NCBI GenBank assembly: GCA_964016885.1
Contig: OZ024746.1
Span: forward strand, 40,238,001-40,302,000
Length of the DNA: 64,000 nucleotides
Source: Eledone cirrhosa
Lineage: Eukaryota
Direction: 5' to 3'
The position numbers were made by a program, and so were the translations under genes. The notes under the pieces were generated by a model, which was given only the letters and a program-made list of their open reading frames with translations, was not told the origin of the DNA and made no database searches. This document shows positions 13,349 to 32,600 of the stretch, piece after piece (the first letter of the stretch is position 1; every line of letters begins with the position of its first letter).

Positions 13349-13515
13349 TTCTTAAATGTTTTTTCCAAATCTTTGATTTCTTTCCTGCTAAATTCTTTAA
13401 ATTCCGTGTAAGGATTAAAAACTTTGGCCGTTGCTTGTATAGTCTCTCCAGCTTCAATAGCATCACTAATATTGATGCGGCGAGTCAGCAGGTTGGCCAA
13501 CTCGTCTGTAGCCAT
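13349..13515 (-). CDS. EFHD2: EF-hand domain-containing protein D (swiprosin-1/EFHD-like), first coding exon, copy a
   Basis: ATG at 13515. Encodes MATDELANLLTRRINISDAIEAGETIQATAKVFNPYTEFKEFSRKEIKDLEKTFK plus 2 nt, then a GTAAGT donor. FNPYTEFKEFSRK.IKD.EK.FK is the conserved EFHD1/2 motif preceding EF-hand 1. Confidence 0.9.
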
Positions 13516-14338
13516 GATTAGCAATAATATACAGACAAAACACTATCAAATGGAACTTATGTAAAAACACCCTAGTGTTAGTTATTTATATGTCCCAGAG
13601 TTGTAAAAGAGAAACTCACTGCATCTGAACGTGAGTTGTTACTTCTGGTTTCTGTGTGTTGTCACGCTACTTGATATTAACATTATTGTCGTTGTTGTCG
13701 TCGTCGTCAGAGAGGCAACTCCTTGCTGGTTGGTAAGGAGACCCAATAAATCCTCACTGTTATAGGAAGAATTAACCTTACCAATTAAACTCTGTTTCTA
13801 CTGCCTTTCGAGCTTCTGTTCATCAGTGTCTACTTATACATAAGGTTGTTTCTCTTTCTATTTCGCTCGCCCGCGCGTTTCTCTCTCTCTTTCGCTTTCT
13901 CTCTATTCCCCCTTCTCTCTCTCTTTCTTTCTTCTCCCCTCTGTTACAATCTACTTCTGTATTCTCTTCCTGCTCTCTTTCTTTCTCCCTCCCTCTCCCC
14001 GTGTTACACTCTGCGTCTTTGTTTCCTCACCACTGTCTCCCCCTCTCTCCCATTAATCCCTCCGTCAGTTTCTTACATAAATATATATATACAATGTTCT
14101 ATATAGCACCAGCGTATACAACTCTATTAGTCCATAGTTGCAGCTACTTTTGTGGGGAAAGGTTTGCAGTGACGGCGATAATGAACATGACAAGAAAGAA
14201 CTAAAGTAAATACTGCTAGCTAAAGCTGTTTCAAGACGCTGTCTTTATTCATTTATTACAAACGTATGTCCGATAATTATTCAATTGTCTTCATGAAGCT
14301 GTGGGCGAAACGAAGAAAAGGAAGAATTTTGATGCTGG

Positions 14339-14346
14339 TGACGTCA
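14339..14346. promoter_or_regulatory. Full palindromic CRE (TGACGTCA) next to a CACTTCC ETS-like core
   Basis: Exact motif about 0.8 kb upstream of the EFHD exon-1a ATG, in non-repetitive sequence. Function untested. Confidence 0.3.
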
Positions 14347-15670
14347 TCACTTCCAATAACGCATATCTACTGCTTCATGCCTATGTTACATCTCTTTACG
14401 GTAGGCATCGTATGTTATAGAAATAGATGAGCTTTTTACAGTTTTCTTTTGTTAGCAGGACTAGAGAGTTGTAAGTTTTGAAGATAACGATATGGAACAC
14501 AACAGTTTGGTAGAAAATGGCAAACTTTCAAAAAAATTAACTTTTTTTATTTTTTAATTTAATTTAATTTAATTTTTTTTATTTTTGTTTCTTCAAATTG
14601 CAAAGCATAAATTTCCAGAAATAAAGCAATTTTCTAAATATCTATCTATGGGGAAGAAGTCAATATTTTCATATTGTTTTGTATAAATAAAAATTCTTTT
14701 CTTTGTTTCCTTCGACTGCATAATTTTCTGTGGTTTTTGCATATAAGTCAAAGCGAGAACGCTGAGCCTTCCTCAATAAACGGTTAATACGGCTTACGTT
14801 CAGTTTGACTTTCGATGATCAGTGGTTGAAGTGAGGAATGGAAGCAATAAACATACACACAGAATGAGGGATTTCCAGGTATCTCTGGGAAAAGGTATCT
14901 ATGCAGGTATGTGTATGTATTTGAATGGGGGCGGGGGTCTGTGCACGTGTGTGTGTGTTGTACGTATGCGCGTTGTACGTATGCGCGTGCATGTTGTGTG
15001 TGCGTGCATATGTGTTTAAATGTGCGTTCTTGCGCATGTGTGTTGTATGTGTCTGTGTGCGTTGTGTATGTGCGTGTGTGTCTGTGTACGTGTGTATGAG
15101 CGTGCTTGTGCATGTTGTATGTAGGTGTGTATGAAACCAATGATATAATAACTGAAAAACTAACGTCTTATATATAATAATAATTGTTTCTACTTTTGGC
15201 ACAAGGCCAGCAATTACTCAGTGTATTACTGGTACTTTATTTTATCGACCCCGTAAGGATGAAAGGCAAAGTTAACCTCGGCTGGGATTTATAATAATAA
15301 TTAATATGAAGACTAAAATCCAAAGAGGGCTCGACAAGGATATAAGGGTGAAAGCAGTGATTCTTTGCTTAAACTTTAATCTGTTATTTTAATTTATATA
15401 TATATATATATATATATATATATAACCAAAGATTAATATGGTTCATTGATTACGCAATGAATACAGTTTTACAATAGATTAAAAGCAATCAACAGTAAAA
15501 TTTCCTGGAGTTTTTAATATTATTTAAAATAATAACAAATGAAGATATTCACATAATCAAAATATATGATTTATTATATATATTTCGAAGGTACTGTGTT
15601 GTTTTTTAAGGCCAATACAGGAATTGAACTATCAAGACCGTATAGGTATGTCATATATCAAATCATATAT

Positions 15671-29120: not shown

Positions 29121-29188
29121 CCTTATCCGACGAACGAATGAGGACGTTTTTCGTATTCGTCTTATTCGGGAAACCTCTGGTAATGCGG
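29121..29188 (+). ncRNA. Degenerate hammerhead motif inside a perfect 31-bp hairpin
   Basis: CCTTAT-CCGACGA-acgaatgaggacg...cgtcttattcgg-GAAA-cctctg-GTA-ATGCGG. The core has a U-to-C change and stem I is imperfect. Confidence 0.45.
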
Positions 29189-29515
29189 TAATATATTGTA
29201 TTGTTTATTATATATATATATATATATATATAATAGACATAAATCGAAGCTGTAGCCGCAGTAGAGCAGATACCAATCGAATTTTTTTAGGCTTATACTT
29301 ATATATAATACACAAGCTCATACACGAACGTGTGCAAAATAACTGGATCCGTGTTATGCTGAAGTGGATTAGGTAAACAAACTCTAAAGATATTACATGA
29401 AATGTTGATCAATAGGCTGAGTAGTTAAGAAGTTTTGTTTAGATTTTACTTTGAAAAGTAGCATTAAATAAGCACCGGTGATTAAATAATGTAAATAGTA
29501 GAAAACATAGCTTAC

Positions 29516-29682
29516 GTATTAAATATTTTTTCTCGGTCTTGAATTTCTTTCCTTGTAAATTCTTTGAACTCTGTGTAAGGGTTGAAAATGTTAGCTGTCG
29601 CTTGTACAGTTTCACCAGCATCGACCCCTTCGTTAATATTGATGCGGCGGTTCAATTTGTTGTTTAACTCATCTGTAGCCAT
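29516..29682 (-). CDS. EFHD2: EF-hand domain-containing protein D (swiprosin-1/EFHD-like), first coding exon, copy b
   Basis: ATG at 29682. Encodes MATDELNNKLNRRININEGVDAGETVQATANIFNPYTEFKEFTRKEIQDREKIFN plus 2 nt, then a GTAAGC donor. Same length (167 nt) and phase as copy a. Confidence 0.88.
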
Positions 29683-32600
29683 GATGATTAAATGATGCTC
29701 AGAGAAACAGTATCAACTTTGAATTTCTGTAGATATATGAGTGTTACTTGTGTATGTCCCAGAAAGTGTAGGAGACACTCTGTGTCAGAAAGAGAGTTGT
29801 TTATGACCTCTATTTAAAATGAACACTCCTTGCTAGTAAGAGAATTGGTGTTCCGTTAAACTCTCTTTTTCTTTCTCTTCTGCCTTTCCCAGTTTTTCAG
29901 TGTCTAAATTAACTTGTCATGAGAACCTTTCCCAGTGTCTAATAAATTAGTCTCTTTCTGCCTTTCACCAGTCTATTTCGTTGTTTCTCTTCTTTTTCTT
30001 CTCTGTTATATGCTTTCAACCTGTCTATCAGTTTCACTCTCCAAACCATTAAACACATAAACCAAAGAGAGGTGAAGCTATCATGTTGGTCTAGTCTAGA
30101 TAAACAGGACTTCCAGATATATAGCCCAAATGGGCAAAGATTATTGTGTTGTAGTAGTCACAGAAGAGACTAAGAAAAGAACTAGTGCATTTGTGAACGG
30201 GAATACGTATGCTTATATTGATAAATATATATATGTCAAACAACTCGATAGCCTACTTTGGGAGGAAGCCCAGAACACGTATGTGCATATATATATATAT
30301 AACAGCTGGACTGTGCCAATGATGTGAGCAGCACTGACCCTATAATGTAAGCAGTACTTTAAAGTAGGTCTTAGTTGATAACTTTAAAGGGTCAGCAACT
30401 GATTAGAGCTGAGGTATTTTTGTTTTTGTTTGTTAGTTTTTTTTTTTGGGGGGGGGGGGTAAATCTGGCTTTTAATGTACCGAAACTAAGGACGAAAATA
30501 ACTTAATATTTTGTAACTATCTCTCTCTATCTCTCTCTATCTCTCTCTCGCTCCTCCTCTCCATCTCTCATAAATTTCTTTCTATCTCTTTCATTCACAC
30601 TTCAAGTTCACACATTATATTTGGTTGAAATGTTCTGAATATGAATGAATGACATTACAATATGATTCACTAACAAGAAGACTTCGTGTTAACTTTGCTA
30701 CAGACAACATAGCAAGTAACCTAACTGATCCTGTGCCCATACAAGGTGAAACAATATACCCCCCCCCCCCCCCCCCCCCCCCCCAATCATCCCTGCCAGT
30801 ATTTAGCTTGTCGCAGAGTCTTTACCGGTCGATTCCGAGATTGACGTTATCTACCCATTTTTTTTCCTTCTATTCTTCTTGCCTTCCACTCCCTGAACTG
30901 ATCCTTGGTCTTTGTTAATCCATTGCCACGTAACCATCTCATATTTTCTCTACAGTGGTTAACAAGTTGTAGTTGCCCAGATGTTACACAATTGCTGTAG
31001 GAATATTTTTGTTATGTATTTCATATGAGAGAAGCCTATGTTTAAAAATAAAATCGAAAAAAAATTATAGGCACCAATACCTTCAGTTAAACATAAAATC
31101 TAATGCTACTGGAATCAGCAATCATCGAGTTTGGGGGAGTTTTGTTGTTTTTTTTATTTTTTGTTATGGCTTATCCATGACCGTTTTCACGGCCTCTGAA
31201 AGAGAGAAAGAAACCACCACGAATCATCAGAGCAGAGACTGCCAAAGGTACGTTTCTTTTAGATAAATATAAATGATTAAAAACAGTTTTGCATCATAGA
31301 ACTAGAGGTGGTTTCAGGCAGTTTAGTATCAAAAGGGTTAAAAGGTATATACTCAGTTGAATGGGTTATGTTTGCTTGTTTTTTTACTACCTAGTGACAA
31401 CTAAAGCAATAATATTTGTTTATTATTCACCCATTTGGTAGCAATGTAAAACAAAACATCCATTAATAATGCTTTTAAAAGGTGGGTGGCTTTGTGGTTA
31501 GAGAATTGGATTTGCAATCATGGGGTTGCAAGTTTGATTCCAGGACCAAGCAATGTGTGCACGTCCTTGAGCAAGACACTTTATTTCACGTTGCTTTTTT
31601 CCCCCAGGAGTTGTGACTGGTAAATAGTATCATCAACGGAAAATCTCATGGAAACATTGTTTCTTTGGTTCATTTTGATAAGTTCTACTCTATTTAGTAA
31701 GCAAATAAGGTTTAGGATCTTGTTGATCAAAAATATCCCTTTATTATAGTAGAATGGTGTCCAGAGTATTTATACTTTATATTAACAAAGGTATGTTATA
31801 AAGTCCATGAGGAAATGATATAGTATTGACAATACAGTCTTTTCAATGTTGACGAGAACATCCTATAATCTCTTCACATCATCATTCATCATCATCATTT
31901 CATTTTACGTCATTCATCATCATCATTTCATTTCTACAGCTGAGTAAACTGGAGCAATGTGAAAATAAAGTGTCTTGCTCAAGGAAACAACACATCACCC
32001 GGTCTGAGAACAACACATAACAACTAGTTACCATACAGCCAATCCAATCCAGAGCCTTCTCACCCCTGTTGGAGGAACCCCTCCCTTGTTGAACTCTAAC
32101 ACTTTCATTTTGGTTTTGATCATGTCAGGGGTGTAGCTACACTCACCATGCTTGGCCAATTGCAGTTTTGTGAGGGTATTTAATCGATATTTGAGATGGA
32201 TGGCCGTTGACTCTGAAGAGTCCATTTGTCCTTTTAACAGCTCTTGTTTTTTGTGCTACTAGGGCTCCACTTACCCTCATCACCAGACCAGGGTCCAGTG
32301 GGGAAGCTGGTTTAGTCGCCAGCCACTTGACCATGAAGCACGTTGTACTGGGTTACAAGGTACCAGTGGCAGCAGAAGCCTGACCTGACCTTTATCATAG
32401 TGTGACAGAATTCAGAGTATATACCTTATATTAACAAAGATGTATTATAAAGTCCATGATGTTATAGTATAAAAAAGGCAGTCTTTTCAATGTAAAGTAG
32501 ACTAGAACATCTTATAAACTCTTCATACCCATTGTAACAACTAATTATCAGATATCCATTTATTTAATTAAGACAATGTCCCACTATGATTCCATCACAA

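Follow-up and report, generated by a model that had tools for sequence, protein, structure and literature searches.

Two alternative first coding exons of the swiprosin (EFHD) gene in Eledone cirrhosa, one carrying an arginine that may retune calcium coupling

The window analysed here is the whole stretch of 64,000 nucleotides (nt) from Eledone cirrhosa (assembly GCA_964016885.1, contig OZ024746.1, forward strand, positions 40,238,001 to 40,302,000). On its minus strand lie two versions of the first coding exon of an EFHD/swiprosin gene, called 1A (distal) and 1B (proximal) in the following. The genome almost certainly holds one such gene, in which the first coding exon was duplicated in tandem and either copy is spliced to the shared exons 2-4. 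The parts of the gene are listed below in window positions, negative numbers being used for positions to the left of the window.

29516-29682, minus: coding part of exon 1A, the distal copy of derived type; 167 nt, residues 1-55 and 2 bases of codon 56.
13349-13515, minus: coding part of exon 1B, the proximal copy of conserved type; 167 nt, residues 1-55 and 2 bases of codon 56.
1-13348, minus: the part of intron 1 within the window, common to both isoforms and continuing past the left edge to exons 2-4.
-7706 to -7853 (contig positions 40230147-40230294): exon 2, 148 nt, with all seven calcium ligands.
-10859 to -10996 (contig positions 40227004-40227141): exon 3, 138 nt, with the ligand-mimic helix and the linker that contains Ile134.
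-15252 to -15383 (contig positions 40222617-40222748): coding part of exon 4, 132 nt including the stop, with the long C-terminal helix.

The best relatives of the exon among the matches listed were EF-hand domain-containing protein D2 sequences, with an Argonauta protein at the top (82%). A search of the 3.0 Gb genome with the full Argonauta protein gave 18 matches, five of EFHD grade, which were the two first exons and exons 2, 3 and 4. The remaining 13 were weak EF-hand matches (E 2e-4 or worse) at other places. Using five full-length homologues, a tblastn search over 144 kb centred on the window placed exons 2, 3 and 4 once each, 7.7-15.4 kb past the left window edge. Neither the tblastn search nor the genome search found an EFHD exon 2-4 between 1A and 1B, in agreement with the first-pass annotation of this DNA, which had seen no such exons there. 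Joined to exons 2-4, either first exon gives a reading frame of 585 nt coding for 194 amino acids with no internal stop. Intron 1 is 37,221 nt long from 1A and 21,054 nt from 1B.

The encoded protein has the parts expected of the family. Residues are numbered here such that mammalian EFhd2 stands at an offset of 47. The PxxP segment ahead of EF-hand 1 is present, as residues 33-42 align with the EFhd1 and EFhd2 chains and Pro35 corresponds to human Pro82. The calcium ligands D58, D62, E69, D94, D96, D98 and E105 correspond to human D105, D109, E116, D141, D143, D145 and E152, the seven EFhd2 ligands named in PMC5156911. The Pfam EF-hand pair is matched on the Octopus isoforms, and structure models of the Octopus orthologues predict the ligand-mimic helix at 123-132 and, for the C-terminal coiled coil, a long helix at 143-193. 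Calcium-regulated binding and cross-linking of F-actin have been reported for the human and fly proteins (PMC3744483, PMC5156911, PMC9076686).

Exons 1A and 1B lie 16,167 nt apart on the same strand. Both begin with ATG, end in phase 2 and contain neither a stop nor an indel, and the donors are GTAAGT for 1B (after 13349) and GTAAGC for 1A (after 29516). They are identical at 39 of 55 residues (71%) and at 125 of 167 nt, and in a self-BLAST of the window 13344-13640 pairs with 29511-29801 at E 9e-33. These results confirm what had been claimed earlier of the two 167-nt exons, that is their position, orientation, phase, likeness and intact donors. When exon 1B was used as query in the genome search, the 1A and 1B places were matched and no third one. 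Residues 33-42 are invariant between the copies. Around the end of the exon they differ: 1A has Thr43, Arg50 (codon 29533-29535), Ile53 and Asn55, and 1B has Ser43, Leu50 (codon 13366-13368), Thr53 and Lys55.

Four public runs with the 1A stretch were used (X1-X4; two samples, one study), of unrecorded kind and none listed as RNA. Run X1 yields two contigs, one of 545 nt covering 29516-30030 and one of 533 nt covering 13349-13853. Both carry, exactly at the donor, a 30-letter loose end identical to the opening 30 nt of exon 2; this string occurs once in 144 kb. To stop 30 letters into exon 2 would be the behaviour of a 31-mer assembly graph where two upstream exons converge. Contigs of X2-X4 cross both donors into the introns, as expected of DNA. 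In the X1 contigs, each first exon is joined to the same exon 2, one per contig; rare transcripts with both exons may also exist. Both donors lead to one acceptor, neither copy is left unspliced, and the single gene with a shared exon 2 past the left edge, as first proposed, is borne out. The 1B contig has one substitution and a 2-nt deletion relative to the genome within the untranslated region (UTR), and these represent an allele, since run X2 shows both of them too.

The Octopus annotations agree. RefSeq holds isoform pairs labelled X1 and X2 for O. sinensis (XP_029637331/XP_029637332) and O. bimaculoides (XP_014778636/XP_014778637), which are of 1B and 1A type in residues 1-55 and identical from residue 56 onward. 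The shared body of 138 residues differs from that of Octopus at 6 places, and by this likeness the animal would be an octopod near Octopus. The arrangement is therefore common to Octopus and already present in automatic annotation. That the locus holds two whole paralogous genes, or that the second copy is an assembly artefact such as an uncollapsed haplotype, is scarcely credible: exons 2-4 are single, both first exons run into the same exon 2, 42 of 167 nt differ with silent sites near saturation, and the same pair stands in two Octopus annotations. RNA editing as origin of the exon differences was rejected, both versions being genomic, and a retrocopy as source of the joints was rejected as no intronless copy appeared in the genome search. 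Two further N-termini were seen in Octopus records. An isoform X3 model of O. bimaculoides (P0212) has a third, non-homologous first exon, and a similar exon was not found in 144 kb by tblastn (best E 0.21). In O. vulgaris CAI9724309.1 (P0209) an unrelated N-terminus is joined into a 1A-type exon.

Upstream of the coding parts and within intron 1, the following features were recorded.

29683-30030, minus: 5' UTR of 1A, continuous with the coding part in the 545-nt contig.
13516-13853, minus: 5' UTR of 1B, continuous with the coding part in the 533-nt contig, which ends just short of a GA-rich repeat.
29344-29447, minus: intron element, 1A copy, 104 nt, 70 nt behind the 1A donor and 80% identical to 12056-12157.
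12056-12157, minus: intron element, 1B copy, about 1.2 kb behind the 1B donor.

A second contig of low depth extends the 1A UTR to 30168. Upstream homology between the copies is significant for about 130 nt ahead of the ATG (13516-13645 against 29683-29810; 89 of 122 aligned bases match and none of 500 shuffles reaches the score). In the next 220 nt there is a marginal, purine-rich match of 20 nt (reached by 7 of 500 shuffles), and further upstream only GA-repeat likeness (1 of 500). As the significant part lies inside the spliced contigs, it is 5' UTR and not promoter; no promoter homology past the UTR was found in the upstream comparison of both copies. The first-pass annotation had extended the homology into the 5' UTR and promoter and proposed two duplicated promoters with mutually exclusive first exons. 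The transcribed 5' UTR and the two first exons spliced into a shared exon 2 stand; a duplication of the promoter itself is conjectural. Each UTR region contains four upstream ATGs on the minus strand (29920, 30049, 30058 and 30084 for 1A, the last three confined to the low-depth extension; 13624, 13683, 13823 and 13841 for 1B), whose frames of 2-39 codons all stop ahead of the main ATG.

Each exon very probably has its own start site, the choice being made by promoter use. The alternative is that 1A and 1B are internal, mutually exclusive exons behind one promoter and a shared non-coding exon, with the paired intron elements steering the choice. Contigs reveal neither RNA starts nor expression levels, the 1B contig halts just before a repeat that is skipped by the tool used, and the intron element is common to both copies, all of which would suit such a scheme. 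However, the contigs reach 348 nt (1A) and 338 nt (1B) upstream without a further joint, so that each exon has more than 330 nt of its own UTR, and neither contig has a loose end on the 5' side (for 1A, among the matches listed). The sense strand upstream of 1B is GA-rich and lacks a pyrimidine tract, and the two intron elements, which have no common predicted fold, stand in direct rather than inverted orientation. We therefore regard internal exons as very improbable.

With common words skipped, the genome search matched the intron element at these two places only. The alignment of its copies has 112 identical bases out of 138, whereas third codon positions agree at 30 of 55 (Fisher p 0.0003, a contrast biased upward by the similarity-based choice of the element). 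It is a candidate for a conserved regulatory element or, alternatively, a conversion tract. The restriction to two genome matches, common words being skipped, speaks against a dispersed repeat. It was also rejected as an exon, no X1 contig covering the 1A copy, on which alone this check was made, and as an RNA pairing partner, all further matches in 144 kb being at E 0.16 or worse and the copies having no fold in common. Rfam had no matches in the window. The duplicated unit would then have spanned at least 130 nt ahead of the ATG and reached into intron 1.

Comparison of 1A with 1B gives 0.159 nonsynonymous (dN) and 1.64 synonymous (dS) substitutions per site, with a dN/dS of 0.10 (bootstrap 97.5% bound 0.25; none of 2000 resamples reaches 1). 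This purifying selection supports the earlier view that both copies are under constraint; the accompanying statement that the changes are mostly conservative needs qualification, as Leu50 to Arg is radical. The pair is a set of expressed, selected and lineage-conserved duplicated first exons of the octopod swiprosin gene.

A tree of first-exon peptides was built from 23 rows and 55 columns; Lottia, without the anchor motif, was omitted. A branch (support 91/99, not starred) separates the four 1A-type rows from the rest, and all four keep Asn17, Asp21, Ile32, Thr43, Arg50, Ile/Leu53 and Asn55. Grouping the two exons of the window together is weakly rejected (approximately unbiased test, p-AU 0.042). 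The best reading of these sequences is one duplication, older than the split of this lineage from Octopus. Some sites hint at an earlier duplication overlaid by patchy gene conversion: 1A has the residue general among molluscs where 1B agrees with a squid- or cuttlefish-like protein, yet residues 26-30, together with exon length, unite the octopod exons. The mollusc states in the window's 1A are Lys9 (12 of 12 outgroups), Asn17 (12), Glu18 (11), Gly19 (8), Gln48 (9) and Asn55 (9). At sites 17, 18, 19, 48 and 55, 1B agrees with this squid- or cuttlefish-like protein, P0121. A clade of 1B with the squid-like proteins is not rejected (p-AU 0.34), and the tree fits either age relative to squids. 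No 1A-type exon of squid or cuttlefish was present among the matches listed in three protein searches (the best 120 each of 288, 925 and 136) or among the cluster members examined, which is weak evidence as these listings show clusters at 90% only. In the Argonauta hians protein P0001, residues 1-56 are a mosaic, 1B-like at both ends and Octopus-1A-like at 24-32, with Lys53; this suggests gene conversion or a fused gene model.

Exon 1 codes for an N-terminus that is disordered or flexible, for the PxxP segment and, in residues 44-56, for the entering helix of EF-hand 1. In the human protein, the PxxP segment covers residues 80-90 and the EF-hand region begins at 91 (PMC5156911). The Pfam EF-hand profile starts at residue 49 in the 1B isoform and at 51 in the 1A isoform, and a helix is predicted at 44-57 in both Octopus isoform models. 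The isoforms had been expected to differ in the pre-EF-hand segment. The exon-1 segment does vary, but the motif quoted for it is helix 1 of EF-hand 1 itself, according to Pfam and the models.

Position 50 lies within this helix. It was scored in 332 of 334 proteins from a fish- and mollusc-rich, non-random sample, and was Met in 156, Phe in 104, Tyr in 35, Leu in 33 and Arg in 4, that is hydrophobic in 328 of 332. The four proteins with Arg50 are all of 1A type and come from O. bimaculoides, O. sinensis and O. vulgaris, plus one further record. No mention of a residue at this position was found in the available part of PMC9980392. By alignment, positions 50 and 53 correspond to Leu96 and Met99 of mouse EFhd1, and Ile134, flanked by Glu133 and Asp135, to mouse Ile179. 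In the structure of mouse EFhd1 (PMC7848108), Leu96 is packed against Ile179 in the C-terminal linker, and Met99 against the ligand-mimic helix. The Octopus 1A isoform model fits the EFhd cores 5I2L and 7CLT at 0.7 A over about 98 columns.

A change of Leu50 to Arg would trade a hydrophobic contact on the C-terminal linker for a charged one. It may thereby alter the anchor between helix 1 and the linker, and hence the calcium response of the predicted actin cross-linking. Park et al. proposed that calcium-dependent rigidity of EF-hand 1 and the linker governs actin bundling (PMC5156911). Calcium ligands and the dimerising tail would be identical in both isoforms, and mixed dimers would be formed where the isoforms are co-expressed. 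We lean towards the explanation as a whole, in which the first exon was duplicated in tandem and Arg50 likely retunes the calcium coupling of the predicted actin cross-linking, the mechanism being taken from homologous structures. For a measurable biochemical difference between the isoforms that could be traced to helix 1, we put the chances at about even. A stronger version, in which promoter choice would act as a calcium switch and the Arg50 isoform would uncouple or reverse calcium control by re-anchoring the linker, with a duplication perhaps as old as the squid-octopus split followed by patchy gene conversion, seems unlikely to us.

Several points weigh against this explanation. Splice support consists of one contig per joint from one run of unrecorded kind, in a study that may be the genome's own. 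The RefSeq XP_ entries are predicted models, and the comparison with them rests on protein sequences and names. Eleven of the 16 differences between 1A and 1B lie in residues 1-32, beyond the solved core. A human EFhd2 truncated by residues 1-96 (1-49 in the present numbering) still showed normal actin bundling in vitro, though lamellipodia were impaired (PMC3744483); since bundling survives this deletion, most exon-1 differences may not touch it. AlphaFold models of both O. sinensis isoforms share their helices at similar confidence, and residues 134-145 have a predicted local distance difference test score (pLDDT) below 50 in both, by which the proposed contact is neither shown nor excluded. 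Finally, comparison of this genome with O. sinensis gives 16 differences in the 55 residues of 1A, 2 in the 55 of 1B and 6 in the 138 of the shared body, and the fast divergence of 1A fits relaxed constraint as well as adaptation.

Two alternatives draw on the same observations. In the first, the split is regulatory only: two starts and UTRs serve different tissues or stages, the proteins act alike, and Arg50 is tolerated as its aliphatic part still packs on Ile134. The alike predicted folds and the dispensable human N-terminus favour this, as do the calcium ligands, linker and tail shared by both isoforms and the non-coding intron element kept in both copies. On the other hand, Arg50 is absent from all 328 other proteins scored, and was kept in four 1A-type proteins and in the window's 1A despite much change elsewhere in the exon, while a radical change that is neutral should revert or show variation. 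We hold a purely regulatory split to be possible but rather unlikely. In the second, 1A is a minor, relaxed copy heading for loss and the conserved 1B isoform does the work. The roughly eightfold faster divergence of 1A over 1B relative to O. sinensis (Fisher p 0.0005) and the sole Argonauta protein found, which carries Leu50, could be read in this way. Set against it, the frame, donor and ATG of 1A are intact at a dS of about 1.6 with the low dN/dS already given, residues 33-42 have not changed and a spliced contig exists. Annotation models of this isoform exist for O. sinensis and O. bimaculoides, and a 1A-type helix occurs in the O. vulgaris protein. A copy on its way to loss is accordingly improbable.

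Other genes and repeats were noted in and around the window. The minus strand at 54414-62105 carries exons coding for tandem CCCH zinc fingers of the Nab2 type (PF14608, E 2e-7 to 3e-4, three frames), from a gene that is presumably ZC3H14. Its last finger exon ends in a stop near 54412, which places it about 24 kb upstream of 1A. Past the right window edge, upstream and on the same strand, are exons of an AAA ATPase gene (PF00004; L023:7163-7408 and about L024:5635-5868, both minus), which is presumably the proteasome subunit gene PSMC4. Intron 1 contains two remnants of non-LTR (long terminal repeat) retrotransposons, one at 8191-9390 (minus), with RVT_1 and a PHD finger at 8194-9390, and one at 26314-27705 (plus), with a weaker RVT_1 at 26314-27066. 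The stretch 19751-20287 (plus) looks by eye like the 3' end of a non-LTR element and has no Pfam match. An open frame at 16902-17453 (plus), with no Pfam match at E 0.01, resembles the GIY-YIG endonuclease end of a Penelope-like element. Very long AT microsatellite tracts lie between 1A and 1B (18710-21284 and 22917-23474), and a tandem repeat array was seen in intron 1 by offset self-matches (4547-5316).

The architecture of the gene is unsurprising, already in RefSeq automatic annotation and undescribed in the literature searched; no paper on octopus swiprosin isoforms was found in a search that lay mostly outside subscription journals. The protein is like the EFHD2/swiprosin-1 family (human EFhd2, mouse EFhd1, Drosophila Swip-1) in its PxxP segment, two EF-hands with seven ligands, ligand-mimic helix, linker and long C-terminal helix. 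It differs in having two interchangeable first coding exons and, in one of them, an Arg in helix 1 at a place where every other scored relative is hydrophobic. The Octopus sinensis and O. bimaculoides pairs combine an identical body with both N-terminal types seen here and are an orthologous arrangement. The window's 1A differs from Octopus 1A at 16-17 of 55 residues, and Octopus 1A lacks four of the six mollusc-like residues listed above. As the search of this genome gave no other EFHD copy, the pair may do in one gene what the EFHD1/EFHD2 duplication did in vertebrates.

Substitutions of N-terminal exons derived from tandem duplication make up 39 of 236 human events and have been attributed to alternative promoter use (PMC8373072). 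Few alternative isoforms have strong evidence of function, and those made from tandem-duplicated exons belong to them (PMC8373072). The present pair is like these in having homologous 5' coding exons in tandem which are used alternatively ahead of a shared body. Protocadherin and UGT clusters represent this principle on a large scale, whereas here there are two copies only. In contrast to the human substitutions, this is a cephalopod case in a gene without such a human event, and the separate starts are deduced. A term search of the supplementary table of human duplicated-exon substitutions did not return EFHD1 or EFHD2 (PMC8373072).

The interest of the pair rests on the Arg50 signature. Alpha-actinin offers the closest functional comparison for the pair. 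There, alternative EF-hand exons give calcium-sensitive and calcium-insensitive cross-linkers (PMC10070769), and the ACTN1 event is listed in the table of PMC8373072. The two proteins are unrelated apart from the EF-hand fold. In both, as far as can be deduced, a calcium-regulated actin cross-linker has part of its EF-hand 1 exchanged through duplicated exons. In alpha-actinin, however, splicing selects an internal exon that holds the calcium loop itself, whereas here the loop ligands lie in the shared exon 2 and exon 1 ends at the end of helix 1, so that the entering helix and the N-terminus are swapped. Reports disagree on whether swiprosin cross-links are strengthened or released by calcium. 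If the proposed role of Arg50 is true, the isoforms would provide a natural single-residue probe of this effect and would be a convergent counterpart of muscle and non-muscle alpha-actinin.

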